Virus record (IMG/VR): IMGVR_UViG_2775506835_000007
Span: 1 to 64,000 of that record
Reading direction: 5' to 3' (one strand)
Source: a virus
Lineage: Duplodnaviria > Caudoviricetes
Length of the DNA stretch: 64,000 bases
The position numbers and the translations under genes were made by a program. The notes under the pieces were generated by a model. The model was not told where the DNA came from. It made no database searches and worked only from the letters and a program-made list of their open reading frames with translations. Below, in pieces: positions 1-58,464 of this stretch (its first letter is position 1; every line of letters starts with the position of its first letter).

Positions 1-657
<657 letters not shown>

Positions 658-21365: not shown

Positions 21366-22790
21366 TTACAATCCCCCTTTCTCCTTTGCATTTTTGATCC
21401 TCAAATTGCTTGTTAATCCGTTTTTAATTATAGTAACAAATTTACCATTCTGCGCAACAACAACATCCTGCCCTTTTATAATAAAATCAGCTGGTCCAGC
21501 AGCTCTTTGACCATTAGGAAGTATTTCACCTAATCCTCGCCATGTTCCATGCACAATCTCATCTCTATTTAAGACTATATCTTGAATAATGGCTCTCATT
21601 TTCTCACGACTATTCGGGTCTGATGGATCCATTCCAAAATCCACAGTATGTTTTCCAATTTTTTTGCCAAACTGTTTTTCACTAATTTCTATTCCATTAT
21701 TATAAACTTTGTCTTGAGATGATTCAAGCATTTTGTTGCTTTTTGTAACTGATTTTGACTCCGGTTTTGGCTCTCTTGTATCTTGAGTCTTTAACCATTC
21801 CTCGTATGTCATATTCTCCGGCATGGGATTTCCGGAATTGTACCAGTCCAAAGCATCGTCCGGATCATATTCAACCGTGGTCGATCGACAATTTGGGTGC
21901 AAGGGCGGATAGTTGACGCCCTCCTGGGCGTCTTCAAGTTTGAAATGCTCCCCGTCCAGAGACGCACAAACGTCGCTTGTTCGGCTGTCCAGCGTGGCGA
22001 CGAACTCATATTCCTGAACGCCGGCGGCTCTGTATGCAGCTTTGTCCGCTTCGCTGTGGAAGTGGGCGGTTTCCGTCCGAATCAGACGTTCAGTCGTCTT
22101 GTAGGACTGTCCCATTTTGGCCGACATTTCTTTCGACATGGCTGCGACACTCTTTCCCTGCATGACACCTTGCGTAATCGTCTCTCGGAGGTGAAACATA
22201 AGAGCCTGTTTGTTTTGCCATAGGCGGTCCGAAAACATGGCCCCGGACCAGGGATACGACAAGACGTTTTCAATCATGCCTTCGTTCAGCTTCGCAAACT
22301 CGTTCAGGAAGCCGGCGCGGGACTGAATATCAAAAATCTTCTTGTAGTAGCCTTCCTGGAAGGCATCGCCGAACTCGGCCTTCATCTGGGCCACGCCCTT
22401 TTCAAACAAGTCATTCAGGATCAGGTCGATCTGTCCTTGCAAAGCTTCAAGACGGGAAATGGAACTGTTAGTGGATAGGGCGTCCAGTTGTACCGTCAGA
22501 AGGGCTTTAACGCGCGGGTCCGGCTCTCTGGCAATCTTCTCAACATAGTCGCCCAAGCTTGCCTTCCATTCGCGGAACTCCGAACGGGATAGAAGGCGGA
22601 CGGCCTGTTCGTAGGTCAAGCCATGTTTTCCGGCGTACTTTGAATAGAAATCATTTATCTGGCGCCGAATTTCCTTCGCAGCAGTGTCGTATTCTTGAAA
22701 CATTTTTGCTGACAGGCCAGCACCGCGAAGATAGGCTTCGTTCTCGCGTTGTATGGCACGCGCGATCCAGTATTCTTTATCCCTTCTCAT
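21366..22790 (-). CDS. Minor capsid protein MuF/SPP1 gp7 with C-terminal toxin-like extension
   Basis: RLIRTET, ATLDSRTSDVC, PPLHPNCRS, then linker and ~110-aa basic domain. Confidence 0.88.
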   Translation of the reverse strand: MRRDKEYWIARAIQRENEAYLRGAGLSAKMFQEYDTAAKEIRRQINDFYSKYAGKHGLTYEQAVRLLSRSEFREWKASLGDYVEKIAREPDPRVKALLTVQLDALSTNSSISRLEALQGQIDLILNDLFEKGVAQMKAEFGDAFQEGYYKKIFDIQSRAGFLNEFAKLNEGMIENVLSYPWSGAMFSDRLWQNKQALMFHLRETITQGVMQGKSVAAMSKEMSAKMGQSYKTTERLIRTETAHFHSEADKAAYRAAGVQEYEFVATLDSRTSDVCASLDGEHFKLEDAQEGVNYPPLHPNCRSTTVEYDPDDALDWYNSGNPMPENMTYEEWLKTQDTREPKPESKSVTKSNKMLESSQDKVYNNGIEISEKQFGKKIGKHTVDFGMDPSDPNSREKMRAIIQDIVLNRDEIVHGTWRGLGEILPNGQRAAGPADFIIKGQDVVVAQNGKFVTIIKNGLTSNLRIKNAKEKGGL

Positions 22791-24285
22791 TCAGGCCACC
22801 AGCCTTTCCAGGGACGCCTTTCTGGCCTTCCTGGGTCGTCTGCTGATCATTACCTGCTCCCAAGGAATCGTCAAACAAGCCGACACCAAAGTCCTCCATA
22901 GCTTTCTTTTTCTCGGCGTCCAATTGATCCAGTTCTTCATCGACATCCTTGACCCACGGATGATTTTGGAGGATTGTCCGTTTGGATAGAAGACCGTCAC
23001 TGGTTCGGGCGTTGTTAATCACGTCGGTTTCGTTGACAGGAAGGTCCATATTAAAGATCACGTCAAAGTTGTCCTTCGTGAAATCGCCCTTTCCAGTAAT
23101 CTGGAAGTAGACGTCAATGAACAGTTTCAGCCGATGGAAAGTATCTTTCAGTTCGGTTCCCAGGGAATCACAGTCGGCGTCAAGATCCATATACCGGAAT
23201 CCGATCGCAGTTCCGCTGGCGTTCCCCAGGTTCGGGTCCTTTGTATCCACGGCCGACGCAAAGTCATACAGATCTCGGCGCTCATTATCCAGAAAGGCCA
23301 TGACGGCGTCTATATTCAGATCGGCCTGTAACTTGTCAACGCCACCGTCGGCGTCAACCTTGATCGCCAGATACTCTTTCAATTCTTTCAAAAACTCGCC
23401 TAAATCTTGACCGCCATAGTTTTTTAGGACATAGATGAACTTCGCCACGTCCCGAAGGACATCAGCCGTTACGCTGTTCTGCCAGTTGATGTCGTCGATC
23501 AGGTCCTTCACAAAGTAGCACAGGGGAAGTTCTTCTTCGTTGTATTTTAGCCATGCGATCGGAACTTCTTCCCAGTTGTACGCCTTGTTTCCGACGGTAA
23601 AGTGTGGTTCCGTCCAGTCGTTTGATTCGTCGCCGTGGTCCTTGTCGACCTGGAAGTCTCCGGCGCCGGACCCGGCGAAGGTGTCGGTCTTAAAATACTT
23701 CACTCCGCCGGTCCACCAAAATTCGGCGTGTGTGATCGTGTGCTTCCTGGTCCCAATATAGATGATCTGGTCGTAGAAGCGAATGAAGGCGTCCAGCTTC
23801 GTTCGCTCTGAATCCCGCCACAGCGGGACGACCTCTGTCGACGGGACGCGCATGAAGGCCAGGGTCCCGTCGTCGTCGAAGTATGGTTGAATCCAGGCGA
23901 TCCCGGACATGACCGCGCCTTTTCCCAGGCTCTTGATCTTCCGACGGAAGGTCTGGTCGAAGACCTCGTTCAGCGCGGCGCCGTAGGTTTCGCTTTCGGT
24001 GTCCACGGTCCAGGGCTTTGACAAAAGATAGTTCGCCTTCTGGTCGATCAGCTTTTTCAGTATTGGTCGTTCGATCTTAGCGTTCGAACGGTTGGCAACG
24101 TCGTTAGTTTTAGCTTGAACAGAAGAACGATTTCTGTAATACTGTTCGCCTTCCAGCATGATTTTATATTGCTCTGACCGTTTGAACTCCCGAATTTCTT
24201 CGCTGACGATCTGGGCCAAAGTCATAGGTACTTTTTCAGGATCGGACAGGAGCAGGTTGATCCGGTCCATGACGGACAGTTCCAT
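22777..24285 (-). CDS. Portal protein, SPP1 gp6-like
   Basis: DQKANYL, GNASGTAI, LSKRTILQNHPWVKDVDEEL. Confidence 0.92.
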   Translation of the reverse strand: MELSVMDRINLLLSDPEKVPMTLAQIVSEEIREFKRSEQYKIMLEGEQYYRNRSSVQAKTNDVANRSNAKIERPILKKLIDQKANYLLSKPWTVDTESETYGAALNEVFDQTFRRKIKSLGKGAVMSGIAWIQPYFDDDGTLAFMRVPSTEVVPLWRDSERTKLDAFIRFYDQIIYIGTRKHTITHAEFWWTGGVKYFKTDTFAGSGAGDFQVDKDHGDESNDWTEPHFTVGNKAYNWEEVPIAWLKYNEEELPLCYFVKDLIDDINWQNSVTADVLRDVAKFIYVLKNYGGQDLGEFLKELKEYLAIKVDADGGVDKLQADLNIDAVMAFLDNERRDLYDFASAVDTKDPNLGNASGTAIGFRYMDLDADCDSLGTELKDTFHRLKLFIDVYFQITGKGDFTKDNFDVIFNMDLPVNETDVINNARTSDGLLSKRTILQNHPWVKDVDEELDQLDAEKKKAMEDFGVGLFDDSLGAGNDQQTTQEGQKGVPGKAGGLNEKG

Positions 24286-24295
24286 TCGTGCTACC

Positions 24296-25567
24296 TCATT
24301 TCAAAACTGTGATAGAAGAACCGCGTCGTGGACGCTCTACTCCATAGCGAAGGGCCGCCATAGCGTCGTCCATGAACTCGACTGGTTCGTCGATATAAAG
24401 GCCCGTGGTCGGGTCTTTTTTCCATTTCCATTGTTGGACTTCCTTCAAGGTGTTCACACATGAAGGGTGAATATGAATTTTCCGGCCTTTCAAAAAATCA
24501 ATCTGGGCCTTCACACTTCCAGGTTCTTTCTTCACGGGCCGGGCGCGAAAGCCAGCCTTCTGCCAAGTCTTGATCCGGTCCGGCTCGGCGCTGTCACAGA
24601 ACATTTCCACGCACGGGTCAACCTGGGCCTTCCGGGCAAGTCCGATTATTTCTTCGGTGTCCTTCTCGAAGACGTACACTTCGGAAGTGACGTATATTTC
24701 TCCGTCCTTCCAGCCGATCCCCAGAATCGCGTCGGCATGATTATAGCCGAAGTCCTGGCCATAGTAGAAACCGTCAAAGAAGTCGCGGCCGGTCGGGAAA
24801 TCATGTACTTCGAATTTCGTCAGGATCAAACCGCCAAGCTCACCCCATTCGCCCAAGCCATAGACGCGATACCCTTCCGGGTCTTCAACCTTCCGGCGCT
24901 CCATACGGCGGGAATAGGCCGGGTCTATGAACCGATTCGACTGATAGGTGGAATGGTGGGTCAGGACGTCCGGATCAGCCTTGTCGAAGTAACGGACCTT
25001 GATCCAGTGTGTCGCGCTGACCGGATTGAAGGTCATTGTGATCTGGTAATACAGATTCGGGTTCAGTTTGGACAGATCGCCACGAAGGCGGTCGTCCAGA
25101 ATGTCAACGTCTTCGGGAAGAAGTTCTGTCGCTTCTTCACACCATATCCAGACCAGTTTTCCGTTCTTGAAGGTGATCGACTTCACCTTCTCCCGCTGGC
25201 GCTGATCCTTCACGCCTCGGAAGATGACTCTATTCCCGGTGATCTTACATTCCAAGGTCAAGGGGCTCAGGTTGACTTTCCAGAAGCGTTCGGCATAAGG
25301 GCCGAACATTCGGTAGATCGCGGCCTGTAACTCTGCAAAGGTGCTATCGCGATTGGTTTCCTCGATCTTCCTGACGACAAGAAGGTTCGCGCCGGTATAG
25401 CGGGGATCGGACAGCTTAGCGACATAATCCTGGGCGATATTCACAGACTTGCCAGAACCGGCAGACCCCTTCAAAATGCGATAGCGGCCGCGCCATTCGT
25501 TCACGGGGCGGAAGATCGGGTTAAACTGGGCGGCGGCTCTGAACTCAATCGTTGTCGCCATAGTCAT
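24296..25567 (-). CDS. terL: Terminase large subunit (PBSX family)
   Basis: Walker A KGSAGSGKS, WCEEATE, TFNP, GQDFGY, DDAMAALRY. Confidence 0.95.
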   Translation of the reverse strand: MTMATTIEFRAAAQFNPIFRPVNEWRGRYRILKGSAGSGKSVNIAQDYVAKLSDPRYTGANLLVVRKIEETNRDSTFAELQAAIYRMFGPYAERFWKVNLSPLTLECKITGNRVIFRGVKDQRQREKVKSITFKNGKLVWIWCEEATELLPEDVDILDDRLRGDLSKLNPNLYYQITMTFNPVSATHWIKVRYFDKADPDVLTHHSTYQSNRFIDPAYSRRMERRKVEDPEGYRVYGLGEWGELGGLILTKFEVHDFPTGRDFFDGFYYGQDFGYNHADAILGIGWKDGEIYVTSEVYVFEKDTEEIIGLARKAQVDPCVEMFCDSAEPDRIKTWQKAGFRARPVKKEPGSVKAQIDFLKGRKIHIHPSCVNTLKEVQQWKWKKDPTTGLYIDEPVEFMDDAMAALRYGVERPRRGSSITVLK

Positions 25568-29664: not shown

Positions 29665-30780
29665 TCATCCTTTCTTTCTGCTGGCAGTTTTCCCTGCTTG
29701 CAAGTCCAGATCTGTTTGTAATGATCCCTGTGTCCAATGTACCCCTATGTAGTCCAGCACCCTACCCCACCCATATACTTCATTTGTAACTGGATCTTTC
29801 ACACATCGGTGCATCCAAAAATTCCATTCTTTCGGGTTGTCTTCGTAGAGCCGGTCAAATCGATGCGGTCTCTTTTCGAGCTGGATTCCAAACCCGCACA
29901 TGGAGCAGCCTGTCCTCTGTGCTCTTGTTGTGTAAAGCGTGCCATCTGCTTGGCATTCTATGGTGCCGTATACCTCTGGAACAGGTACATCCAGGTCAAG
30001 GGCAAGCTGCAACAGATCTTGGCGGTCAAATATCGCAAATGGCGCTGACCGTATCGCTGTCTTTCCAAAGTAGTTGCATCCATTCATCATGAGCGACTTT
30101 TGGCGGCGACCTCCTTCGGACGCCATGAGACCCAGATACGGTACACTGTTGTGTTCTTTCGCCCAGTCATCACATGGCTTCTCTTTGAGGTAATAGCAAC
30201 ACTTGGCGGATACTTTAAACGGCGCACATTGATATTGCACATCCTCCCGTTCATTTTCACCTCCTGCAAACAGTTCCAGCCATTTCTGAGCCATCTTCAT
30301 CCGGGTGCCTGTCCGGTTTCCTCCGTATGCTCCGGTTTCTCCTGTGATGATTGCATGCCGGACTGTGGCATTCTTTGGAGATGGATTTTGTAGCAGCTCG
30401 ATCTTCGACGCCGTTTCTTTAGACAGTACCGGGAACCCGCATTCCTGCAGAACTTGTGTTTTGCTCTTTAAAGGTTTCAGCGAGATGATTCCCAATGTTT
30501 TATGTATGGCCTGAATGCTCTTGTCCTCCAGGGTCGATACCGAAACCGCTGGAACATCTATCCCAATGGACCGCAAAAACAACAGCAAAGTAATGCTGTC
30601 CAGACCACCTACGGATACATGACAGTTCAGTCCTCGCTTGCCACACTCGTTGTAGAACTCCCATGCGCGTGTGTATGCATAGTTTATTTTTGCTTCATAC
30701 GGTAGTTTCTGTTTTACCCGAAACGAAGCGATTTTCTCGTCTGTGTGATTCTCCTTCATTCTCTCCATACAACTTTTCAT
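29665..30780 (-). CDS. PAPS-reductase-like (adenine nucleotide alpha hydrolase) Fe-S protein
   Basis: SVGGLDS PP-loop, KCCYYLKEKP, RTGCSMCGFG. Confidence 0.8.
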   Translation of the reverse strand: MKSCMERMKENHTDEKIASFRVKQKLPYEAKINYAYTRAWEFYNECGKRGLNCHVSVGGLDSITLLLFLRSIGIDVPAVSVSTLEDKSIQAIHKTLGIISLKPLKSKTQVLQECGFPVLSKETASKIELLQNPSPKNATVRHAIITGETGAYGGNRTGTRMKMAQKWLELFAGGENEREDVQYQCAPFKVSAKCCYYLKEKPCDDWAKEHNSVPYLGLMASEGGRRQKSLMMNGCNYFGKTAIRSAPFAIFDRQDLLQLALDLDVPVPEVYGTIECQADGTLYTTRAQRTGCSMCGFGIQLEKRPHRFDRLYEDNPKEWNFWMHRCVKDPVTNEVYGWGRVLDYIGVHWTQGSLQTDLDLQAGKTASRKKG

Positions 30781-30998
30781 TTTTGTTTTTCTCGACCTCC
30801 ATTCTGTGAATCTTTATCACGCAGCAACCCGCCAATCCCCATGGCCAGACTCTCTGCCGTCGCTAGGATCAGCACTTGCCAGATGGTCAACATACCGCTG
30901 TCCGACGCCATGGCTGTGAGAAATGCTCCGGTCAGGCCGGCAACAAACAGGATCACACCCAGCCTGCTGTGCTTTATGTATGGGCTGTCTTTGTTCAT
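30777..30998 (-). CDS. Small two-TM membrane protein
   Basis: AGGAGG RBS, two hydrophobic segments, stop overlaps next start. Confidence 0.6.
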   Translation of the reverse strand: MNKDSPYIKHSRLGVILFVAGLTGAFLTAMASDSGMLTIWQVLILATAESLAMGIGGLLRDKDSQNGGREKQK

Positions 30999-33099: not shown

Positions 33100-33528
33100 A
33101 TGAACAAACCAGTTCACGAAACTCTACGTGAAATAATGAATGAAAAGAATTTATCAATTGCCGAAACAGCCAGGATATGCAATTTGCCAGACTCAACAGT
33201 TAGAGGAATAATTACCAGGTTCCAAAAAAGTGTAGCCCTTGAAGTCGCATTTAAATTATCAAAAGGGTTAGGAGTCAGCTTAGAAAGATTAAACGGTGGA
33301 GAAGAACTAAAAAAATCCCCCGACCCGGAAGAACCGGAGACGGAGGATTTCGATGAAGAAGAATTTCAATTATTTTGCAAAGCGATGGTCACTCTTGGAT
33401 ACCTTCGTGAAGGTGAGGATTTTACCGACACTCAAGTTCAGGTCCTCGCTGGAATCATTCAGATTTTGGACGCTACTTTTCCGCGCTTCGCGGATGGACA
33501 ATTGGATGAGGCTCGGACCGCTGGATGA
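33100..33528 (+). CDS. CI-like XRE repressor
   Basis: N-terminal HTH (LSIAETARICNLPDSTVRGII...KLSKGLGVSLERL); divergent from cro, upstream of integrase. Confidence 0.82.
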   Translation: MNKPVHETLREIMNEKNLSIAETARICNLPDSTVRGIITRFQKSVALEVAFKLSKGLGVSLERLNGGEELKKSPDPEEPETEDFDEEEFQLFCKAMVTLGYLREGEDFTDTQVQVLAGIIQILDATFPRFADGQLDEARTAG

Positions 33529-33822: not shown

Positions 33823-33981
33823 CAAAAAACCGCTTCACCCTGCGCCAACAGGATGAAGCGGCAAAGGAAATGCCTGACCTGGCGGTAACCAGATCAGGCA
33901 TGAGAGACTGTTGGCGGGTAAGACCAACAGGCAGTAATAACGAAACATGCTTATTATACCTGCTTGGCTTTTCGTCGTCAA
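33823..33981 (-). ncRNA. Candidate ~120-nt three-hairpin RNA with its promoter, antisense to the integrase leader
   Basis: Minus-strand TTGACG-17-TATAAT (33981-33953); hairpins 33908-30, 33870-901, and 33830-61 + T6. Confidence 0.6.
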
Positions 33982-33998
33982 TGATTGGAGGACAAAAA

Positions 33999-35507
33999 AT
34001 GAGCTTTTACGGTCCAGCATCCAAACCGCTTCGGGCTGCGGCATATGCCCGTTACAGCACAAACCGACAGACGGAAAACAGCATAGAGTACCAATTTAAT
34101 AAAATAAAAGAATATTGCCATCAAAACCGGATACAGGTGGTCTCTTACTACAGCGATGAAGGACAGAGCGGAACCAACATGGACCGTGCTGGCTTCATAG
34201 ATATGGTCGCGGCGGCGGCTCGGGGTGAATTCGACGCCGTTGTCATCTACGACATCAGCCGCGGCTCCCGTGACGTCGGTGACTGGTTCGCCTTCCGAAA
34301 GCAGATGGCCCGGCTTGGCGTGCAGGTGATCTCTGCTACACAAGAACTGGGAGACGTGACAAATCCAAATGATTTCCTCGTGGAGCTGATCACGGTCGGA
34401 TTAGGTGAGCACCAGGTACTTGACACGCGGGTCAAATCCATTGCCGGAACCACCGTGCGCGCAAAAAAAGGCCTATTCTGCGGCGGCGTCCCACCGCTTG
34501 GATACGATATTGTGGATGGTAAATACATCATCAACAACGCAGAGGCTGCCGCTGTCCGAAAAATATTTGAACTGTACGCCGCTGGAAAAGGCTACAGCGC
34601 GATCTTAGAGGCTGTAAAAGGCATAAATGGTAAACGGGGTAGTGCTTTAGGCAAAAACAGCTTATCAAGCATCCTGCGCAACGAGAGATACATAGGCGTA
34701 TACACATGGCTCAAGCGCCGCTGTAAGCTGATGAGAAAATGGGCCGGTGGAACTCCGAACCCCGATGCAGTACGAATAGAAGGGGTTATCCCACCAATCA
34801 TCGATGAAAAAACTTGGAACGAGGTGCAAAAAAGAATGAGCGATAACAAGAGACGCGCCAGCAACAAAGCAAAACAGGAATACTTGCTTTCTGGTCTAAT
34901 TGAGTGTGAAGCCTGCGGCAGTACCTACGTTGGCCACTGCTCCACCAACTCAAAAGGATACCAAACCAGAAGCTATATTTGCGGCAACAAATACCGTACA
35001 CACACCTGTACAGTAAAAAATATCAGTGCCAACGAAATTGAAGCTTTTGTGATTCAGCAATTGCAGGCGTTCTTGCTTGAGACTGACTTTGCGGAGACTT
35101 CCAGGAAAATTGCCGATCAAGTGAATTCTGCCAGCCCTGATCTGACCGCGGAGCGGCGTGAACTGAACGGTGTCATCGCCAAAATCAGCAACGGCACAAA
35201 AGCGATTTTATCCGGCATCAACTACCCGGAATTGCAAGATGAAATGGACAAGCTTCGCCTGCGTAAGTCTGAGCTGGAGGATATTATTTGGCGCACGCAA
35301 TCCAATCGCCAACCCGTCAGCGGCGATAAAATAGAAAAGCTGCTCAATGAGGCGCTGGAAACCTTACCGGCAGATCCACGCGCCGCCATCAAGCAGCTTG
35401 TAACAAAAATATACGCCCACGTCGACGGTTCATTCACCGTAAACGTAGGCGTACATATAGCTGGTTGCGGAGGTCTGCAACCAGTGGCGACCACTACTGA
35501 TTTATAG
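33999..35507 (+). CDS. Large serine integrase of prophage 1
   Basis: YARYST catalytic motif, recombinase domain, zinc ribbon (LSGLIECEACG...YIC...C), coiled coil; GGAGG RBS before ATG 33999. Confidence 0.95.
   Translation: MSFYGPASKPLRAAAYARYSTNRQTENSIEYQFNKIKEYCHQNRIQVVSYYSDEGQSGTNMDRAGFIDMVAAAARGEFDAVVIYDISRGSRDVGDWFAFRKQMARLGVQVISATQELGDVTNPNDFLVELITVGLGEHQVLDTRVKSIAGTTVRAKKGLFCGGVPPLGYDIVDGKYIINNAEAAAVRKIFELYAAGKGYSAILEAVKGINGKRGSALGKNSLSSILRNERYIGVYTWLKRRCKLMRKWAGGTPNPDAVRIEGVIPPIIDEKTWNEVQKRMSDNKRRASNKAKQEYLLSGLIECEACGSTYVGHCSTNSKGYQTRSYICGNKYRTHTCTVKNISANEIEAFVIQQLQAFLLETDFAETSRKIADQVNSASPDLTAERRELNGVIAKISNGTKAILSGINYPELQDEMDKLRLRKSELEDIIWRTQSNRQPVSGDKIEKLLNEALETLPADPRAAIKQLVTKIYAHVDGSFTVNVGVHIAGCGGLQPVATTTDL
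35462..35482. repeat. att core at the prophage 1/prophage 2 junction, inside the integrase 3' end
   Basis: Identical 21-mer to 1704-1724; encodes GCGGLQP. Confidence 0.9.
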
Positions 35508-35650
35508 AGACTCGCTAAAAGATTACGTACAATATCTTTCCGCGTGCGCTTAGATTTCTATATAATTAATTTAAAGAATATATTCCCAGCCTACAATCCC
35601 CTTTTTGTGTGATAAGATTTTAAAATCTTGTCATATAAAGGGGATTTTTT

Positions 35651-36217
35651 ATGTGGATATTATTGGTAGGTCCATCAGATGATAATAAAAAACACACCCA
35701 GAAAATTATCGAAGTACACAATAAATACAAGCAGTCACTTATCAGGGCGGCTTATAAGATGCTTGGGAATCGGCAGGATGCCGAAGATGCTGCAATGGCC
35801 GGTATGCAAAAATTTATAGAGAGGGCGGACGAGATATATGCAGACCCAGCAAACGCCGACGAGTCCTTTATCCGTCATAAAATATTTGATTACACCCACG
35901 ATGCGGCCCGGCTTATTTATAAAAAAAGAAAACGCCATCCGGAAATAATCTCTCTCGACGACTGCGATGATATACAAGAGATCAGGCCCGAGGGTTTTAA
36001 CGAGTGGATCATCGATATAAGCATATTGTTTAACAATTTGCCGGAACGCTACCGGGATGCTTTGGAGCTTACATATATCAAGCAAAAAGACGATGACGAG
36101 ATCGCAGAACGCCTGCATACTACCCCTGCCAATGTAAGACATTTGCGGTCACGAGGGATTGAGAAATTAAAAAATTATGTACGTATACATAATTTGAATC
36201 CTGATGATATTGTTTAG
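35651..36217 (+). CDS. ECF-type RNA polymerase sigma factor
   Basis: Region 2 AYKMLGNRQDAEDA; region 4 LPERYRDALEL.Y...EIAERL...NVRHLRSRG. Confidence 0.88.
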   Translation: MWILLVGPSDDNKKHTQKIIEVHNKYKQSLIRAAYKMLGNRQDAEDAAMAGMQKFIERADEIYADPANADESFIRHKIFDYTHDAARLIYKKRKRHPEIISLDDCDDIQEIRPEGFNEWIIDISILFNNLPERYRDALELTYIKQKDDDEIAERLHTTPANVRHLRSRGIEKLKNYVRIHNLNPDDIV

Positions 36218-36228
36218 GAGGCGAACAA

Positions 36229-36936
36229 ATGGATTTCACAGAAGAGCAATGGGGAAATATTATTAACCGGATAGTTGAGGTCAATTCCGCTGCGCTTATG
36301 ATGGGCGCGGAGGATATAAAATATCCGCACCTAAAAAAAGAGCAGCAAGCCTTTGATATGGCCTTACATAGATATGATCAATCATATAAACCGCATATAA
36401 TTGCGGCTCGGGTTGGCAAGCGCGTCGCAATTGCTCTTATCGCCGCCCTCCTTGCAGCCGCAATGACAATTATGACAGTATCCGCTGCACGTGAGTGGTT
36501 TATTGACTTAATTGGAGGCATTTGGCCGGGCGAACATGTTACCGCTGGCATGCTACCGGAGGACGAGCTACCAAAATTTGCGGTATACTCTCCCGCGTAC
36601 ATGCCAGACGGATATGAATTAGCGGAACGAGATGTAAATGATCTGCACCGTTTGGCGCACCAAACATATTACCGTGGCGGGGATGAAAAACTAGAGATAA
36701 AAATAAGTCATTACCAAAGAGGCAACCTAAAGTATGATCATTCCGGCGATGAGGTCGGATATGTCTACATTAACGGGGACAAATCCACTTATAGCCGTAA
36801 AGGTGAGCGCCAAATGCTGGGCTGGTCTGACGGATTAAATTTTTACCGAGTAACGTGCTATGATCCGGATGTGAGCAAGGACGATCTGATCAAAATTGCG
36901 GAGAGTCTCGCCCCGGAGCCAGTGGGTGAACAATAA
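36229..36936 (+). CDS. Anti-sigma-like single-TM protein with DUF4367-like extracellular domain
   Basis: KRVAIALIAALL TM, PAYMPDGYEL, LGW...VSKDDLIKIAESL. Confidence 0.8.
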   Translation: MDFTEEQWGNIINRIVEVNSAALMMGAEDIKYPHLKKEQQAFDMALHRYDQSYKPHIIAARVGKRVAIALIAALLAAAMTIMTVSAAREWFIDLIGGIWPGEHVTAGMLPEDELPKFAVYSPAYMPDGYELAERDVNDLHRLAHQTYYRGGDEKLEIKISHYQRGNLKYDHSGDEVGYVYINGDKSTYSRKGERQMLGWSDGLNFYRVTCYDPDVSKDDLIKIAESLAPEPVGEQ

Positions 36937-36997
36937 TCTTTTGGTTATCCTCTTTGCCCGCCGGGCATAATACCCGTAGATTGGCGGTGATACTATC

Positions 36998-37192
36998 ATG
37001 GCCCTGTCAGAGCAAGAATTAAAAGAACTTTTGCAAAAACACAAGGATGAGATAATAGACGACAGCCTCAAAAATTTGCCCCCGGACAAAGACCTAAAAA
37101 AGATGTACCCGGTACCTGATGATTTTGATACTAAAATATTAAAGCTGCTCTCAGATGCTGCGGATATGCGCAAAAATAAAAAATCCCCCTGA
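36998..37192 (+). CDS. 64-aa protein resembling the cytoplasmic N-domain of DUF4367 anti-sigma proteins
   Basis: LKNLPPDKDLKKMYPVPDDFDTKILKLL; GGCGGTGA RBS. Confidence 0.55.
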   Translation: MALSEQELKELLQKHKDEIIDDSLKNLPPDKDLKKMYPVPDDFDTKILKLLSDAADMRKNKKSP

Positions 37193-38250: not shown

Positions 38251-39087
38251 ATGCGCAAAAAAGCAGCTATCTACATAAGGGTATCGACGCTTGATCAAGC
38301 GCGGGAGGGGTATTCTCTGTCGGCACAAGAAAGGGCTCTGCGAAAATGGTGCGAGGATCACGGGTATGGTGTCTATTTTGTTTATGCCGATGAAGGAATT
38401 AGCGGAAAGGATATAGAGCATCGTCCTGGTATGAAGCGGCTCTTAAAAGACATTGAAAATAAATGTTTTAATCTTGTCGTAGTTTGGTCTTTGAGCCGGT
38501 TTACCCGTTCCGTAGCTGATCTCTATGATACACTGGGCGTGCTGCAAAAATGTAGTATAACTTTCGTCAGCTTGACCGAGTCGTTTGATACGGGCACCGC
38601 AATGGGCCGAGCGATGGTGGGGGTCTGCGGTGTGTTCGCCCAACTAGAACGGGAATTGACAGCAGAGCGCGTAAGCGCCGCAATGGGAGAACGCGCCGCA
38701 CAGGGTAAACGAACATGCCACGATGTTTTAGGCTACGATCTTGACGGAAAAGACAGCCTCAGAATTAATGAACGCGAGGCCGAACGAGTGCGGTACGTAT
38801 TCAAAAAATATCTTGAATACAAAAACCTATCCGCCGTGGCCGAACTTTGCAGGCTCAAAGGGTATACGGGCAAACGCGGTAAAGTTCAAACCGCTGAGAG
38901 TGTTCGCAAAATATTGACCCGTCCGATATATGCGGGGTATAACAGTTACCGTGGAAAAATATACAAAGGAAATCACCCCGCGATTATTAGCGTTGAATCG
39001 TATAATAAAGTACAACACATACTAGGGAAATCAGTCGCCGGAAGGCGCTTACAACGTCCGTATGAAAAACTAAACACCAAAATATAA
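38251..39087 (+). CDS. Serine recombinase (catalytic + recombinase domain, no zinc ribbon)
   Basis: YIRVSTLDQ...GYSL, DEGISGK, SLSRFTRS, FAQLERE, HPAIIS; 278 aa. Confidence 0.9.
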   Translation: MRKKAAIYIRVSTLDQAREGYSLSAQERALRKWCEDHGYGVYFVYADEGISGKDIEHRPGMKRLLKDIENKCFNLVVVWSLSRFTRSVADLYDTLGVLQKCSITFVSLTESFDTGTAMGRAMVGVCGVFAQLERELTAERVSAAMGERAAQGKRTCHDVLGYDLDGKDSLRINEREAERVRYVFKKYLEYKNLSAVAELCRLKGYTGKRGKVQTAESVRKILTRPIYAGYNSYRGKIYKGNHPAIISVESYNKVQHILGKSVAGRRLQRPYEKLNTKI

Positions 39088-42025: not shown

Positions 42026-44041
42026 TTAGTAGGAGCTTAAAAGTTCACATGTAATTTTTTCGCCCAACAATGTTCTCCCGGTTTCATTTGGATGCGTGCC
42101 GTCGTTTGGCGGGAAATAATGCGTTCGGTTAAATCGGTTGATTCCTAATGTTCGATACATGTCCACGGCGGGAATTTTGTACCCTCTCGCCAATTGGATC
42201 AATGCATCTCCAAATTCATAAAAATGTCTACCGTCGGAAAAAGTTTTTTCGTCGCTATCAATATATTCATTGTCCCAGTAGCGGAAGATTGGCGTGAGTA
42301 GCAGAATCTTGAGATTGGGATACGCGCCCCAGAGCTTTTCCAGCGCGTACCGTGCTGCGCCAAGATAGGTCGTTGTGTCCTTGGGATTGTTGGCATTATC
42401 CAACGGCACCCCGCCTTGGATGTCATTTGTGCCATAAAAAATGGTCACATGGTCGACATCCCTCCAATTGATATCCTTGAGATTAGACACCCGCTCCGCC
42501 GCATAGCTGCCGGTGTGGCCTATCGCGGCCTCCTGTAACGAGTAATCACCAGATGCTACTGCATCTGCCAGCCGGTACATGCAAAATGCATCATAGTATT
42601 GATCCGGATGCCGCGACATGCGGCACCCCTCCATTCCAACGTTGTATACTTGCATTCCTGTCAATTTGGCTATGATCGACGGATAATCCGTGGGTGGCCG
42701 GAACATGCCTGTAATGCTGTCCCCAAAACAGACCAACGTTCTGCCGTCCATTCGAGACAAAGGAGGATTCGGCAATATCACATTTCCGCCACTGTCCGGA
42801 GATATTCCGTTTATGGTAAAAACATTTGATTCGGCCCGCGAATACCAAATTGTACAAATTGGATCCGACTCAAAATGAATCGGTGTAGGTACATTTATCA
42901 AAACAACTTCGCTTTCAAACGCGCCTTTCCGATCATATACCGGCGTGTGGGCCGTGCCCGCCCCATCCCGGTTTATGTATATGTCGCGGAACCTGAATTG
43001 GTATCCGGCGACCAACTCTGCCACTACGTTACCGGGATAGTATTCCATCATCACGTCAGCGGATGAGGCTGTGAACTCATAGCCATGTAATCCCGCTGAC
43101 GATATACGCATTGGGGGCATGATCTGGTCGCCCTTGCTTCCGTTGGTTGACTCGTTAAGCATAAATTGGCCATACAACATGGTAGCTGTATTTGAGCCAG
43201 GCTTTAAGTCGGTCGTATCAACGTAAATTTTGTACCGTTTTCCGATCTCTAAATCTTTATAAATCATCCGTACAAACACATTAAACCACTGGGTTGCCGT
43301 GCTGGATAATGTATACTCGTAGTATCCTTTAGAGACATCTTCCGTAATCCCACCGGAGTAGGTGCGAGACTGTGTATCCATGTCCTTGACCGTGTCGCTA
43401 TAAGCGCGATACGTGCAGCTCGCCGCATCGGACTTGAGCTTCACCTCGCCAAACTGGGAGACGCTAAACGTACACGGAGTGGTGCCAAACTCGCGCCATG
43501 TGCCGCTTGTCTTTACGTCCTCTAAGATTTTTTCACACTGTTCCACAGCGTCTGCCGCGGCTTGCTCTGATTCCTCGGCCCGGCCTGCGGCGGCCTTTGC
43601 GTCATTTCGCGCGGTCAAAATACTGTTTTCATATTCAATAAATTCCGACGGTAGCGGGGACGGGACTACATCCGGCGCATTGATGCTTTGATCTACATAC
43701 AACACAAGTTGCGCAGATTTTTTTACGCGTCCGTCTGTATGTGTGGCTCTCAACTGGGCCGCGATTTTCCCAGCCCTCATTGTATATTCCTTTTTAATCG
43801 GTATGGATAAAATCGTATTTCCGGCTTCTTCCGATTTCTCTACGGCCCAAATATTCTTTTCTCCATTTTGAGATACGTCCAGTACAATATTCCAATTCAT
43901 GTATTCCGTTCCGGATTTTTGAATTTTTAAAGTAAACACTTTATTTTCTTCTGCATATCCAATTTCTAAGTCGGTTCTATCCGCAGTAAAACTCCAATTT
44001 TTGTTTAAAGTAATCATTTGGCCCCCTATAATCAAATACAC
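42026..44041 (-). CDS. BppU-like N-domain + coiled coil + beta-sandwich + SGNH hydrolase
   Basis: GDSIT, GTND, DGTHPN; C-terminal part closely matches 2160..3815. Confidence 0.85.
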   Translation of the reverse strand: MYLIIGGQMITLNKNWSFTADRTDLEIGYAEENKVFTLKIQKSGTEYMNWNIVLDVSQNGEKNIWAVEKSEEAGNTILSIPIKKEYTMRAGKIAAQLRATHTDGRVKKSAQLVLYVDQSINAPDVVPSPLPSEFIEYENSILTARNDAKAAAGRAEESEQAAADAVEQCEKILEDVKTSGTWREFGTTPCTFSVSQFGEVKLKSDAASCTYRAYSDTVKDMDTQSRTYSGGITEDVSKGYYEYTLSSTATQWFNVFVRMIYKDLEIGKRYKIYVDTTDLKPGSNTATMLYGQFMLNESTNGSKGDQIMPPMRISSAGLHGYEFTASSADVMMEYYPGNVVAELVAGYQFRFRDIYINRDGAGTAHTPVYDRKGAFESEVVLINVPTPIHFESDPICTIWYSRAESNVFTINGISPDSGGNVILPNPPLSRMDGRTLVCFGDSITGMFRPPTDYPSIIAKLTGMQVYNVGMEGCRMSRHPDQYYDAFCMYRLADAVASGDYSLQEAAIGHTGSYAAERVSNLKDINWRDVDHVTIFYGTNDIQGGVPLDNANNPKDTTTYLGAARYALEKLWGAYPNLKILLLTPIFRYWDNEYIDSDEKTFSDGRHFYEFGDALIQLARGYKIPAVDMYRTLGINRFNRTHYFPPNDGTHPNETGRTLLGEKITCELLSSY

Positions 44042-44692: not shown

Positions 44693-45406
44693 TTATGTAA
44701 TAGTCACAGCAAACAGCCGCTCGCCGTTCGCGTACACGCCGCAGCCCGCGCCGGGCGGGCCGATCGCCTTGATCTGGAAATACCAGTCCCATCCCTGCTG
44801 CTTCCCAAACCTCGTTTTCAGCACCGCACCGTTTCCGGCGGTGAAAGCCGGCTTTTTGTAGCTGGTCAGCTTTACCGTATAGACCTGCCCCTCTGGTAGG
44901 TGCATGTCCATCGTCGTGTCGGACTTGATTGCATACAGTGCCTGCTTCACCATGTCCAGGAACCGCGGCCAGCCAAGTGCCAGCGTGCGGTGCGGGCAGT
45001 TTTTGCCAGAATAGTCCTGATGCTTTGTCACCTGCTCCAATCCCCAACCGTACCGCGCCAGAATCGACGCGGTCAGCTCGGCGGCATTTTTTTCAGCCTG
45101 TTCAAACCGCGGCCCTCCACTTCTGGAATAGCAGATCTCAATCGCGACGCCCTGCCGGTTTCCTCGTCCATTCCCGTCGCCCGCGTGCCAGGCGTTCCGG
45201 GTCTCCAGAATCGCCTGGATGGCCTCAATATCGTCGACGGCATAATGAAAAGAGACTTGAGCATCGTTGTTGGTCATATATGCGACTTCATTTTCCGCGC
45301 TTGCATCGTTGGCGGTATTGTGGATAACTACACGGGTTGGTGACATGGAGTAGGGGCATTTGATGCTGTATTTGCTGTCTGGAACCAGATTTTGTGTAAG
45401 GGTCAT
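44693..45406 (-). CDS. Amidase_2 endolysin (XlyA/CwlA-like)
   Basis: IHNTAND, SFHYAVD, NAWHAGDG, IEIC, HQDYSGKNCP. Confidence 0.93.
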   Translation of the reverse strand: MTLTQNLVPDSKYSIKCPYSMSPTRVVIHNTANDASAENEVAYMTNNDAQVSFHYAVDDIEAIQAILETRNAWHAGDGNGRGNRQGVAIEICYSRSGGPRFEQAEKNAAELTASILARYGWGLEQVTKHQDYSGKNCPHRTLALGWPRFLDMVKQALYAIKSDTTMDMHLPEGQVYTVKLTSYKKPAFTAGNGAVLKTRFGKQQGWDWYFQIKAIGPPGAGCGVYANGERLFAVTIT

Positions 45407-47233: not shown

Positions 47234-47769
47234 TCCCGCATTTCTCCATTCCGTATTTGATCGTGGGTATACGCATGTAGCTGTCCGTGTGTATAGGCCG
47301 ACACACCAGCATGAGTCAAAAAGTTATATATATAACTAAAAGCAAGGTGCGCGGGCTTGATGTCTTCAATAGTCGCGGTCAGGTCTTCTAAATTTGGGGG
47401 TATTCCAAGGCTGCTGAATTTCACTTCAAACGAGTAATTTTCCGGATGTTCGATGATTTCTACATCTCCGTTTACAAAGCTTTCCGCGGCATTTTTTATC
47501 ATCGCAATCGTCGCGGTCCCTTTGCTGCGGATTTTACTGATAACGCGCGAGCGGCGGAAATCGTACGGTTTACTTATGTCAGTCTCGATTCCATAAAGTT
47601 TTTCCCAAAAATCCAGCCCCCAAGTGGCTGTACTCACAAAAAGCTGATCCAAGAGAGATTCATGAGCTTCCCATAGGGCGACTGCTTCCGGATTCATCGC
47701 GTCCAGCGTCGCACAGGTTTCTGGGCTTTTCAGATAATCTGGTGGCACTTGGTTCTTTAGGGCTTTCAT
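47230..47769 (-). CDS. Baseplate protein XkdU/YmfQ-like
   Basis: TATWGLDFWE, RRSRVISK, IKPAHL. Confidence 0.85.
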   Translation of the reverse strand: MKALKNQVPPDYLKSPETCATLDAMNPEAVALWEAHESLLDQLFVSTATWGLDFWEKLYGIETDISKPYDFRRSRVISKIRSKGTATIAMIKNAAESFVNGDVEIIEHPENYSFEVKFSSLGIPPNLEDLTATIEDIKPAHLAFSYIYNFLTHAGVSAYTHGQLHAYTHDQIRNGEMRE

Positions 47770-48815
47770 ACAACTGTCACCCCCACGTTTCCTAAGACCG
47801 GCACTTGATCGGTATCCAGCGATATATTTGCCTTACCAGAATTAACTGTCAGCGTGACATAATCTGTTACACCTTGCATTCCCAGCAGGATATACGATAC
47901 TCGGTTATAGACAATTTCGTTTTTCACAAACGCCAGCTCATCGAGGTATTTTCCAACCGCCGCGGTAAATTCTGCTTTTATGGCGGCAGCGCCGACGCTT
48001 CCGTCTGTTTTTACCTGCGCCAATACGTTTATTGTCAGCGCCCTTGCGGACACAACCGTGACCGCTGCGCCAACCGGCCGGCGGTCTTCGATGTGCGCTT
48101 TGCAGTCAGCGGTAATTTCCGTTCCGACCGGCCTCATATTTTGGTCCACAATGATGATCCCGACAGTCCCCGGTCCGTTGTTCAGCGGCAGCACCTTCGC
48201 GCGGCCAACTCCGTTTACTTCTTCTGCCCAGCGCTTGTAATCGTATAGATTTCCGCCTGCGCTTGGATTTTGCAGGACGTCGCACAACCTTCCGTATAGC
48301 GCCTTGTCCGTTTCCCGGTCGGTTCCGCCCTCCGCCTTTCCACTGCTTACGCCGGTGATGCCGCTTATGCTGGAGGCCAACCGGTCGATGTTCCCGGCAT
48401 CCGCGTTGTATTCTGATCCGATCTCCGCCGCTTCCGCTTCTACCTGGGCGGTTCCGTTTGCAATGGTTGCCGCCGCTATCGTAAGATATTCCAACCCTGG
48501 CATCGACAGCAGCACGGTCCCTTTAGCTACGGTCGTCCCGTTGCTTCCGGTAAGCGTGACGGTTGCTTTCGCTTTTGTTCCCGGCTTTCGTTCAATTCCG
48601 TATTCCGCACATCGCCTTTCAAGGTACTCTCCAGAGACTTCATCCACGAATGCGATAGGGATCACCGCGTTGATCGATTCGTACACCTTGCTGATTTCCA
48701 ACGACACGGGGGAGATAATATCGTTTGTGTAACTGCCCTCCCGCTTGTCAAGCTCATTTGACATACTGGATAAAATATCCGCTTTTATGGCTTCGTACGT
48801 TTTTTCCTCATACAC
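47766..48815 (-). CDS. Baseplate J/gp47 family
   Basis: DKREGSY, GGTDRETD, GNLYDYKRWA, NGPGTV, RPVGA. Confidence 0.92.
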   Translation of the reverse strand: MYEEKTYEAIKADILSSMSNELDKREGSYTNDIISPVSLEISKVYESINAVIPIAFVDEVSGEYLERRCAEYGIERKPGTKAKATVTLTGSNGTTVAKGTVLLSMPGLEYLTIAAATIANGTAQVEAEAAEIGSEYNADAGNIDRLASSISGITGVSSGKAEGGTDRETDKALYGRLCDVLQNPSAGGNLYDYKRWAEEVNGVGRAKVLPLNNGPGTVGIIIVDQNMRPVGTEITADCKAHIEDRRPVGAAVTVVSARALTINVLAQVKTDGSVGAAAIKAEFTAAVGKYLDELAFVKNEIVYNRVSYILLGMQGVTDYVTLTVNSGKANISLDTDQVPVLGNVGVTVV

Positions 48816-49230
48816 GGATCGTGTCACCCCCGTAAATGGTTTGTATTGTGCAGCTTCCGTTCAGCTTGTCGTCTTGCAGCGTCATTGCTATATCGGTCAC
48901 GCCGGTAATATACGGGTTTACCGACAGGCATTCCCTTACAAAACGTGGGATTTCCGACCGCTTTAAGTCTTCTGTGTATGCCTGTCCAATGAGGGATTCC
49001 ATTTCATTTCCAAAATCCCACGAGTACATCTCATACATGTACCGCGGCGTCGATAGAGCTTTGTATGCCCACACCTTCACCGCCTCAACTCCGGTTACAA
49101 TTACCGGTGATCCTCCCTTAAATATCGGTGTATTTTCGCTATAGTCCCAGGCTGTTTCCCGGTATAGCGGCAGGTCTTGCGTCACTGTCACAGCTTGCGG
49201 CTGCAACGACGGAAAAAGCGTCATATTCAC
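48808..49230 (-). CDS. XkdS (DUF2634)-like baseplate protein
   Basis: EAVKVWAYKAL.T.RY...YSWDFG.E, NPYI, TIYG. Confidence 0.85.
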   Translation of the reverse strand: MNMTLFPSLQPQAVTVTQDLPLYRETAWDYSENTPIFKGGSPVIVTGVEAVKVWAYKALSTPRYMYEMYSWDFGNEMESLIGQAYTEDLKRSEIPRFVRECLSVNPYITGVTDIAMTLQDDKLNGSCTIQTIYGGDTIRV

Positions 49231-54357: not shown

Positions 54358-55422
54358 TTAAATTACGATTTGCAAGTCGATGTCTTCAATCGCATCCAAA
54401 ATTTTGATGTTTGCCAGCAAAAACACTTTATCCGCGGTATTTGCGCTGCGGATTTCCTGCTCGCTCATCGCGGACACATCTACGCCTGTACTCTGCAAAT
54501 AGGCTTTTTGCGCCTCTACATCGATGTCGATTGTGTTTTTTCCGGGGTCAAGCACACCGTCGATCTCAAGCTGCGTAAAATATCCTTTGATCGCCGTGAT
54601 GAAAAGGCATTTGTTGTCATAGCTGTTGGCGTACTTCCCGATGTAGCTGTCCTGCGCGGTGATCTGTATATCCCTTTTGATCGCGGCCACGGCATCCACG
54701 ATTTTGATCTTTTTAAACTGTTCTCCCTTGTCTTTGGTTGTGGTGGTCAGAGAGTTGATTCCACGGCCTACTTTCACTTTGCGTCCGTCGTGCATCAGAA
54801 TGAACTTTCCGGCGTCAATCGCGGTATCCATTTCCTCTTTGGTCATGCGCTTAATGTCGGTGATTTCCGGAAGCGGGGCATAGGTGCAGGATATATTCAT
54901 CGGCGTTCCGGCCAGCAATCCCGCGATGCGGCTGCAATACTGCGCCGCGGTGTATATCTGATCTCCTGTCTGGATTTCCTCTGCCACAAAATTAATCACG
55001 GCTTCGTTATCTGCTGTATGCCCCGGCAAAACCGCGCGCGGCGTCGCTCCCTGCTCCCATTGCGTTTTCACCCAGGATGCAATGGCGGTCGATTCCGCGC
55101 TTGAGGTATCCGGCGGACCGGCGAGGTAATCAAACGTCTGTGTCGCAAAATAGTCGAGCGCTTCTGTCAGGTTTGCTGCGTCCAACGGCAGGACGTACAA
55201 AATCACCTTGCTCGGCGCACTGACATAGCCCAAAAACGTGCGGCTTACATATTCCTGGTTGTCCGCCGCAAGTTCTGCCGGAACCTCTGTTGCGCCGGTA
55301 ATCACGTGCGCGCCGTTTTGCTTACTGTCCTTTATGATCAGTCCGACCGTACCTTTTTTTGATAACTGCACGGCTGCGGCCGCAGCTGTTTTAAATGCGA
55401 TATTGATATTTGGCAGTCCCAT
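54358..55422 (-). CDS. Contractile tail sheath protein (short type)
   Basis: MGLPNINI.FK, SRIAGLLAG, RGINSL, YIGKYANSYDNK, DAIED. Confidence 0.92.
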   Translation of the reverse strand: MGLPNINIAFKTAAAAAVQLSKKGTVGLIIKDSKQNGAHVITGATEVPAELAADNQEYVSRTFLGYVSAPSKVILYVLPLDAANLTEALDYFATQTFDYLAGPPDTSSAESTAIASWVKTQWEQGATPRAVLPGHTADNEAVINFVAEEIQTGDQIYTAAQYCSRIAGLLAGTPMNISCTYAPLPEITDIKRMTKEEMDTAIDAGKFILMHDGRKVKVGRGINSLTTTTKDKGEQFKKIKIVDAVAAIKRDIQITAQDSYIGKYANSYDNKCLFITAIKGYFTQLEIDGVLDPGKNTIDIDVEAQKAYLQSTGVDVSAMSEQEIRSANTADKVFLLANIKILDAIEDIDLQIVI

Positions 55423-58447: not shown

Positions 58448-58464
58448 AGTTTTAATCCCCTTTC

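Follow-up and report, generated by a model that had tools for sequence, protein, structure and literature searches.

Staphylococcal cassette chromosome (SCC) elements stack at orfX, and the characterised large serine integrases mostly target protein-coding genes. These enzymes recombine attP with attB in the absence of host factors and depend on a directionality factor for excision. According to the sections of PMC3783163 drawn on here, a serine integrase synapses attP with attB, its coiled coils lock it on its own attL and attR, and its zinc domain binds P-type and B-type half-sites in different registers. In Mycobacterium abscessus, 10 of 15 tyrosine-integrase sites overlap tRNAs and, within the excerpt of PMC8092301 used, none of the described serine-integrase sites does; for the heterotypic tandem prophages of M. 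abscessus T36/T38/T48 at attB-2, sequential integration into the resident attR (or attL) has been proposed and called unusual (PMC9934374, in excerpt). Streptococcal integrative and conjugative elements (ICEs), integrative and mobilizable elements (IMEs) and cis-mobilizable elements (CIMEs) form tandems at the 3' ends of tRNA genes, where their integrases are distantly related but have the same specificity; the internal site is chimeric, as in attL-ICE-attI-IME-attR-tRNALys, and integration goes into the attR that holds the gene end (quoted parts of PMC5704250). Dehalococcoides islands with CcrB-type recombinases stack in tandem at ssrA, with direct repeats of about 20 bases of the gene's 3' end at their boundaries (PMC3146451, cited section). 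Here we analyse a stretch of 64,000 nucleotides (the window; G000:C12:130993-194992) from a Caudoviricetes virus record, IMGVR_UViG_2775506835_000007; positions past 64000 are given as window-equivalent. On sequence grounds it is very probable that this stretch and its continuation hold two head-to-tail prophages, joined at the 3' end of the initiator tRNA-Met gene by a hybrid attachment (att) site made of one arm from each phage (P1-P2').

A 20-base core, GGTTGCGGAGGTCTGCAACC, occurs in two exact copies within the window (1705-1724 and 35463-35482), and the preceding T lengthens the identity to 21 bases (1704-1724 and 35462-35482). No other match with up to three mismatches was found in the window, and none of 100 shuffles contained any match. 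When the whole genome was scanned with the first 12 bases of the core (TGGTTGCGGAGG), four matches were obtained, three of them on the same strand of contig C12 (window-equivalent 1704, 35462 and 77257) and one on C9. The third C12 copy sits 13 kilobases (kb) past the window end, runs on as CAGGATTTGAACCTACGACC.. and is the only one with a tRNA continuation. The C9 copy (C9:403360) was dropped as a chance match, being within an ordinary coding frame that we take to resemble methylglyoxal synthase. At the 12-base core none of the three junctions has gained or lost a base. With B and B' for the host arms and P and P' for the arms of phage 1 or phage 2, the sites within the window are as follows.

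1704-1715, plus strand: core of site A, a 12-base copy of the initiator tRNA 3' end (minus strand: CCTCCGCAACCA), central GG at 1714-1715; attL of phage 1 (B + P1')
1716-1745, plus strand: P1' arm, TCTGCAACC, three bases, then TATATGT; mirror of the P1 arm
35446-35471, plus strand: P1 arm, GTACATAT motif, three bases, then GGTTGCGGA; also encodes the integrase codons GVHIAGCG
35462-35473, plus strand: core of site B, central GG at 35472-35473; hybrid junction P1 + P2'
35474-35499, plus strand: P2' arm, TCTGCAACCAGTGGCGACC...; mirror of the P2 arm left of the tRNA, beyond the window

The arm left of 35472 reads ACATATA-GCT-GGTTGCGGA (..GTACATATAGCTGGTTGCGGA) and the arm right of 1714 reads TCTGCAACC-TAT-TATATGT (TCTGCAACCTATTATATGTGC..); the two are mirror images about the central GG. 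The arm right of 35472 has the inner TCTGCAACC in common with them and then continues as AGTGGCGACC (TCTGCAACCAGTGGCG..). It is mirrored by the left arm of the third site (..CGCCACTGGTTGCGGA), which identifies it as the P' arm of phage 2 and, therefore, the junction as P1 x P2'. We compared 26 bases on either side of the central GG at the three sites, the outer part comprising 17 positions, at which about 4/17 agreements are expected by chance. P1 and the reverse complement of P1' agree at 10/17 outer positions and have the 7-base run ACATATA, and P2 (..GACGCCACTGGTTGCGGA) and the reverse complement of P2' agree at 9/17, with the 7-base run CGCCACT. The crosswise pairs P1/P2' and P2/P1' agree at 6/17 each, without a common run, and the outer motifs of the two phages are unrelated to each other. 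The inner nine bases are common to all four P-type arms (eight if one G/A difference is counted), and the host arms B and B' agree at 6/26 positions. A first-pass annotation of the window had claimed a symmetric attP from the left arm of 35472 and the right arm of 1714, a right arm at 35472 with the common inner part and a different outer part leading into a second prophage, and a junction of phage-1 arm with phage-2 arm; the first is present as written, the second was confirmed, and the six-arm comparison agrees with the third.

The resulting attP is an imperfect inverted repeat about a two-base crossover, with arms that mirror about GG as in the attP sites (about 50 bases) of large serine recombinases. 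In the LI integrase model the zinc-domain motif of attB lies 5 bases farther inward than that of attP. Read by eye at this shift, B' has GTAGGTT against the phage 1 motif G[TC]ACATA (4/7 match) and the B arm has no comparable match; the symmetric block of phage 2 is nearer the centre, so that the model does not map onto it. In each of the blocks 1716-35471 and 35474-77266 the two ends mirror each other, and the arms that meet at 35472 do not. The overall layout is thus B-P1' at 1714, phage 1, P1-P2' at 35472, phage 2, and P2-B' with the intact tRNA at 77267, and it has the hallmarks of tandem accretion: same-strand direct repeats at each boundary, an intact gene at one end only and a chimeric internal site.

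No tRNA gene was called inside the 64-kb window; the gene and the terminator next to site A lie at opposite ends of the array.

Window-equivalent 77257-77333 (L005:13257-13333), minus strand: tRNA-Met(CAT), called with ARAGORN
1671-1697, minus strand: putative intrinsic terminator hairpin of the original tRNA gene, in the outer host B arm; 11-pair stem, then a T run

Bacterial initiator tRNAs are marked by a CAT anticodon, a C1/A72 mismatch and three G-C pairs closing the anticodon stem. Among the three CAT tRNAs of the genome only the one at the array end has the C1/A72 mismatch and a GGG/CCC anticodon stem, and by these features it is the genome's single initiator tRNA-Met. Its body, from 77269 onward, is the true B' arm. 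The last 10 tRNA bases and the crossover dinucleotide GG are part of each phage P arm, so that upon integration the tRNA is restored at the right end and a 12-base stub remains at the left. There, at site A, the minus strand reads CCTCCGCAACCA, seven bases and then the 11-pair hairpin and T run (1697-1671), which folds with a free energy (dG) of -20.6 kcal/mol and a z of -5.2, a value that 0/200 shuffles reached. The hairpin looks like the tRNA gene's own terminator, and both the tRNA 3' end and the minus-strand terminator that had been proposed for the left site were found. The tRNA ends of 12 loci were scanned (the array's own and 11 from relatives), and the motif was matched in the own locus and in nine of the relatives'. 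The stretch before the tRNA end differs in all nine and is hairpin-like in most. The first-pass annotation had named two observations that would speak against its reading, namely relatives carrying the junction's right arm as a host arm and the lack of a third core and tRNA at the far end of prophage 2. None of the relatives' stretches is P2'-like (9/9 loci), and core and tRNA-Met are both present at 77257. The left flank itself is poorly conserved: of its 1091 bases only the initial ~260 have a counterpart, in a single same-genus genome among 60 relatives and off the tRNA contig of that genome, so that no empty-site comparison is possible for the host species. The genes right of the tRNA are syntenic with Caproiciproducens faecalis.

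Each block ends in its own large serine recombinase gene.

33870-35507, plus strand: integrase 1, large serine recombinase; longest open reading frame 545 amino acids, homologues suggesting a start near 33999-34029
Window-equivalent 75738-77300 (L005:11738-13300): integrase 2, 520 amino acids, running into the tRNA-Met; Resolvase, Recombinase and zinc ribbon domains

All Pfam domains are above curated cut-offs: Resolvase (PF00239), Recombinase (PF07508) and Zn_ribbon_recom (PF13408) match integrase 1 at 6.9e-25, 5.2e-19 and 5e-14, and integrase 2 at 4e-19, 4.3e-22 and 1.7e-14. Both proteins read YARYST..Q near the N-terminus, a motif that presumably holds the serine nucleophile, and their lengths (about 490-520 amino acids) are compatible with a coiled-coil insert in the zinc domain, the element that governs directionality in this family. 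They are 42% identical to each other over 476 amino acids, and their best matches among INPHARED phages are below 32% identity for integrase 1 and below 28% for integrase 2. Integrase 2 is the second serine integrase that had been predicted to lie past 64000 and to end in TGGTTGCGGAGG on an intact tRNA-Met. Because the reading frame of integrase 1 crosses the att core at 35472, its last 11 residues are encoded by the P' arm of phage 2.

The two forms of the site expected for phage 1 alone were found in relatives. In an IMG/VR prophage (L024, integrase 77% identical to integrase 1) the same P1 arm stands directly on the tRNA body, so the attR1 form (P1 + B') exists in nature; in a metagenome contig (L054, integrase likewise 77% identical) the same P1 arm is joined to the mirrored P', which is the free-phage form. 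Eighty metagenome loci encoding integrase 1 relatives were classified by their junction:

34/80 loci: full tRNA end (26 Met-CAT, 6 Leu, 1 Ile, 1 Gln)
20/80 loci: own 8-base P-arm motif inverted exactly +36 bases downstream, with at most two mismatches
9/80 loci: partial tRNA, then foreign DNA
8/80 loci: contig stops within the tRNA
4/80 loci: junction absent
3/80 loci: asymmetric (L060, L065, L100)
2/80 loci: ambiguous (L087, L092)

In L077 and L080 the motif is altered to GTACTCAT and its inverted partner is altered alongside to ATGAGTAA. In a random-sequence control with a 30-position scan, at most one mismatch was reached in 20/2000 trials. The P1 arm and the 1716 arm, put side by side, obey the mirror rule with one mismatch at +36 (our own count), and site B breaks it, its best match having 3/8 mismatches at +49, which is random-like. 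The exact 21-mer had no match in IMG/VR and none in the metagenome contigs; in the species genomes it had two other matches, one in a phage-1-like attL and one in Rhizobium, which sits in coding sequence and was taken as chance. A scan of IMG/VR with 17 bases of the P2 arm gave four matches, none of them with integrase or tRNA context, and these were likewise attributed to chance.

As the integrase frame crosses the core, the C-terminal tail of the protein shows what lies right of the site. We collected 228 homologues, the best 120 of each of two overlapping searches, and examined 172 full-length proteins of the integrase 1 clade. Short tails, mostly ..GCGGRI-stop, in which the tRNA is read in frame, make up 108/172; a longer read-through of the tRNA is seen in 6/172 and the clan's own P' tail (xQxI[IV]C..) in 42/172, the anchor was not found in 4/172, and 12/172 were left unsorted by rule. 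Inspected by eye, these 12 comprise four variants of the own P' tail, two tRNA tails, three unexplained and three foreign tails. The foreign tails belong to integrase 1 of the window (..GCGGLQPVATTTDL-stop), P0169 and P0191, the last representing 154 member sequences. P0169 and P0191 have phage-1-type P arms and tails (..SLPxILF..) that resemble P0031, an integrase of a third clade; L065 shows a P0191-like joint as DNA, in which the mirror motif is absent within the only 462 bases before the contig end. In P0002 (84% identity to integrase 2) a P2-type arm, ..DDLSATGCGG, precedes LQHIVCTTFRKSA-stop, a tail that shares 12/13 residues with the P' tail of the phage-1-type integrase P0122; it may be either a reverse-order stack or the joint of a whole-array circle. 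Together the tails point to at least three further hybrid joints elsewhere, one of them in reverse order. That relatives of both integrases end on tRNA-fMet is seen in L024 and in the GCGGRI-stop tails of both clades. As a practical trick, the tail can report whether a copy is free, integrated or stacked.

Arrays were also found at the same tRNA elsewhere. C. faecalis has four same-strand copies of the 12-mer within 99 kb (G061:C2:400080-498799; L030-L033, L048-L053), in the order 20.8-kb serine-integrase element, elements of ~37 kb and ~41 kb, intact tRNA. The integrase of the 20.8-kb element is 63% identical to integrase 1, and the element encodes very large surface-type proteins and no phage structural genes. 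The ~37- and ~41-kb elements are related to each other, are bounded by 45-base tRNA repeats and encode one 462-amino-acid protein each, which looks like a tyrosine integrase, judged from the N-terminal sequence only. The same pattern is seen in 8/80 metagenome loci, where 45 bases of a tRNA and then other DNA come after a serine-integrase element. With 9/80 metagenome loci and the three-element array of C. faecalis, such arrays would seem to be frequent in this anaerobe group.

Gene content was assigned from PHROG and Pfam matches. Each block has a large terminase, portal, head proteins, sheath, tape measure, baseplate, tail fibre and a repressor-like gene by the integrase, a protease and an amidase being extra in phage 2, and both prophages are, by these matches, intact-looking temperate myoviruses.

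1716-35471: prophage 1, 33.8 kb, myovirus-type (PHROG matches)
2160-3818, minus strand: phage 1 tail fibre (PHROG)
5388-7109, minus strand: phage 1 Hoc-like protein (PHROG)
8056-9135, minus strand: phage 1 baseplate (PHROG)
11579-13612, minus strand: phage 1 tape measure (PHROG)
14732-16066, minus strand: phage 1 sheath (PHROG)
21366-22790, minus strand: phage 1 minor head protein (PHROG)
22777-24285, minus strand: phage 1 portal (PHROG)
24296-25567, minus strand: phage 1 large terminase (PHROG)
33100-33528, plus strand: phage 1 repressor-like gene (PHROG)
35474-64000 in the window (left 28.5 kb): prophage 2, 41.8 kb, ending at window-equivalent 77266 (PHROG and Pfam matches)
35651-36217: phage 2 cargo, sigma-70-like (regions 2 and 4)
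36229-36936: phage 2 cargo, DUF4367 protein, adjoining the sigma-70-like gene
38251-39087: phage 2 cargo, short serine recombinase, 278 amino acids; Resolvase and Recombinase, no zinc ribbon
42026-44041, minus strand: phage 2 tail fibre (PHROG)
44693-45406, minus strand: phage 2 amidase (PHROG)
47766-48827, minus strand: phage 2 baseplate (PHROG)
51186-53387, minus strand: phage 2 tape measure (PHROG)
54358-55422, minus strand: phage 2 sheath (PHROG)
57248-58468, minus strand: phage 2 capsid (PHROG)
58465-59187, minus strand: phage 2 protease (PHROG)
59174-60427, minus strand: phage 2 portal (PHROG)
60606-62333, minus strand: phage 2 large terminase (PHROG)
29702-30980 and window-equivalent 70149-71427 (L005:6149-7427), plus strand: DNA common to both prophages, 1.28 kb, 90.7% identity (blastn of phage 1 against phage 2)

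The 1.28-kb stretch, in direct orientation, is the only DNA that blastn found in common between the two prophages; they are therefore two different phages, and their adjacency is not an assembly slip. The stretch spans most of a protein of 371/375 amino acids that has no Pfam match. Recombination within this repeat would delete 40 kb and yield a chimeric phage. The 278-amino-acid serine recombinase of phage 2 is near the tail-fibre genes and is possibly an invertase or a truncated integrase.

We think it likely that the array arose by two successive integrations of the attP x attB type, the second of them into a hybrid site that served as attB. As to their order, we lean towards phage 1 arriving first and phage 2 then entering attR1 (P1 + B'), on the tRNA-proximal side. 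Phage 1 would have integrated in the tRNA 3' end, rebuilding the tRNA and leaving attR1; integrase 2 would then have taken attR1 as its attB, and attP2 would have recombined there. In this scheme attR1 would retain the whole tRNA, with B' complete and B over its inner 10-11 bases, so that the outer B arm alone would differ from the native attB, and this outer stretch already varies from host to host, as in the nine matched relatives' loci. The attR1 route is preferred because it keeps the parts of attB that are conserved among hosts (tRNA body and inner B arm) and changes the outer B arm only. Since the foreign P1 arm would be ordinary DNA to integrase 2, the coiled-coil lock of an integrase on its own attL and attR would not apply; more generally, a second integrase that does not recognise the resident P or P' arm as P-type would be able to treat a hybrid as attB. 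The different outer motifs, as read by the zinc domain, would then be what permits stacking.

The same final layout would fit the opposite order equally well, with phage 2 first and phage 1 entering attL2 (B + P2'), the site distal to the tRNA, integrase 1 reading P2' for the tRNA body. The inner contacts of integrase 1 could be met there, P2' and P1' having the inner nine bases TCTGCAACC in common; compared with the native B' arm, however, P2' agrees at 5/26 positions and at 1/9 in the inner part, and the tRNA body is the sole part of attB conserved among hosts. In the mixed arrays (C. faecalis and the 8/80 metagenome loci) the serine-integrase element is the one farther from the tRNA, as a late distal landing would give, a position that is equally explained by other elements arriving later at the intact tRNA and is partly due to how the loci were collected. 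We rate the opposite order as rather unlikely. Histories without any integration into a hybrid site, in which the phages were joined beforehand (by attP x attP or homologous recombination) and came in as a single unit, the block was inherited or transferred whole, or a phage was swapped by recombination between arrays, appear improbable. The 1.28-kb direct repeat at 90.7% identity offers a substrate for them, homologous recombination was deemed the most plausible route for tandem tyrosine-integrase prophages in M. abscessus (PMC9934374, passage on this point), and whole composite-element transfer is documented for ICE/CIME tandems (PMC5704250, same parts). A crossover within the repeat, however, would not give a clean P1-P2' joint at GG, all three junctions being exact at the core; serine integrases without a directionality factor are reported to recombine only attP x attB (sections of PMC3783163 named above); and block transfer would only mean that the array originated in a different cell.

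Two direct repeats flanking one integrase phage also resemble a plain attL/attR pair, as would be expected of a single prophage with the host B' arm right of 35472 and then chromosome or an unrelated island. The region right of 35472 is instead a full phage that ends in its own integrase on the intact tRNA, the right arm at 35472 mirrors the P arm of integrase 2, the true B' begins at 77269, and L024 joins the same P1 arm to the tRNA body in another genome, which leaves the single prophage scarcely tenable. We give just as little credence to an assembly artefact that brought together phages lying apart in the cell. The assembly is a draft of 12 contigs, and no public sequencing run covering 34000-37000 was found; nevertheless, a mis-join in a 1.2-Mb contig would call for longer or more similar repeats than the only ones present (21-base core; 1.28 kb at 90.7%), and the junction geometry is exactly what site-specific recombination predicts.

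Several points weigh against two successive integrations through attR1. The symmetric block of the P2 arms lies ~3 bases nearer the centre than that of the P1 arms, and a B-type motif looked for in the P1 arm was not recognisable. The attR route is favoured by reasoning on which bases are conserved. The last ~22 residues of integrase 2 are frameshifted relative to all homologues at a seven-A run (L005:13180-13300, window-equivalent 77180-77300); the alternative frame gives the tail ..DDTDATGCGGRI-stop, like that of relatives, and the shift may stem from a sequencing error or be a genuine and probably harmless alteration of a tail that may be dispensable. P2 and P2' have never been seen joined as DNA, because the collections with genomic context hold no close relative of integrase 2: none was found in IMG/VR, none above 43% identity in 300 family genomes and none at E<=1e-120 in 400 order genomes. 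No strain of the species was found in which the site is empty or occupied by only one of the two phages, and same-genus flanks differ. The other hybrid cases are known from protein tails and one short contig, not from full arrays.

Taken more broadly, and tentatively, the locus may belong to a large, mostly undescribed family of serine integrases at the initiator tRNA, for which stacking would be natural, ordered and heterotypic only. Every attR would stay a near-complete attB, because integration rebuilds the tRNA. The resident integrase would be locked out, reading its own P arm as a P-type half-site, and a relative with a different outer motif would read the same DNA as attB. If so, a phage's own kind would be excluded at the integration step, the landing pad would be open to other kinds, and competition for one essential site would drive diversification of outer arms and zinc domains.

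Some integrase relatives appear to target other tRNAs. Integrase 1 relatives of 50-65% identity are found on Leu-TAA, Leu-CAA, Ile-TAT and Gln-CTG tRNAs (L055, L056, L112-L117, L123-L133, L025), the Ile-TAT call possibly being a mis-called CAT type. These retargeted loci retain the outer GTACAT motif (GVH in the protein), and their inner arm has been replaced by the new tRNA's 3' end; L114 has a P' arm that mirrors this changed inner part. By their sequences these loci form a natural series of retargeted sites.

Two further loci have unusual junctions. In L122:3030-3140 a P arm with its mirrored P' is followed, ~3 bases on, by a second P arm (the last ~10 integrase codons) on the tRNA, so that P-P' is immediately followed by P-B'. 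Either a same-type tandem reduced to a remnant or a duplicated att may account for this layout, and the former would argue against a strict ban on like-with-like stacking. In L092:1290-1440 a P arm is joined to an arm with the mirrored outer motif and an odd inner part, and a degenerate copy of the tRNA 5' half lies ~60 bases farther on.

On the host side of the array, a 203-amino-acid resolvase-type serine recombinase is encoded on the minus strand at window positions 1-612. Its neighbourhood matches same-genus genome G002 on a contig other than that of the tRNA; from the recombinase gene to the terminator, 950 bases are unmatched in relatives, and the region may be the remains of an older element. 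A frame of 79 amino acids (1569-1808) runs from host DNA, opposite the terminator, across site A into phage 1; it has no Pfam match and is probably not a gene.

The locus suggests that an att site left behind by one integrase can serve a related integrase as a landing pad. Serine integrases are prized in genome engineering since they recombine attP with attB only and ignore the products. For half-site discrimination, the array would mean that a foreign P arm may be accepted in place of a B arm, or a foreign P' in place of B'. For orthogonality, related enzymes with a common core and different outer motifs would be raw material for serial "stackable" landing pads. For phage ecology, several temperate phages can share the initiator tRNA, an essential target present in a single copy, and leave it intact.

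Tandem accretion itself is known, and its occurrence with serine-integrase phages at a tRNA through a hybrid site appears to be new: neither a report of serine-integrase phages stacked at a tRNA via a P-P' hybrid nor a description of an initiator-tRNA-targeting serine integrase family was found by full-text literature searches, which did not extend to subscription journals or supplements. Like A118/LI, Bxb1, phiC31 and SPbeta SprA, the integrases described here are Resolvase-Recombinase-zinc ribbon proteins with a short inverted-repeat attP, a two-base non-palindromic crossover and hybrid attL and attR. They differ from the characterised phage serine integrases in that the target is the 3' end of a tRNA gene, that attP carries 10 tRNA bases so that the gene is rebuilt, and that the integrase frame crosses attP, so that the C-terminal tail changes with the state of the site. 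The streptococcal ICEs and IMEs are conjugative or mobilizable islands with tyrosine integrases, whose core is duplicated in attL and attR so that reuse is expected, whereas here the elements are phages whose serine integrases recognise a site of 40-50 bases through both of its arms and as a rule do not accept hybrids. The M. abscessus T36/T38/T48 tandems likewise involve tyrosine integrases, and the evidence there is integration-dependent immunity, not the symmetry of att arms. The Dehalococcoides ssrA and SCC islands are also serine-recombinase elements in tandem downstream of a single-copy gene; those carry a CcrB-like and CcrA-like pair at tmRNA or rlmH and are described as one repeated kind of site, whereas the elements of the present array are single-integrase phages with different outer arms, which meet in a recognisable P1-P2' chimera.

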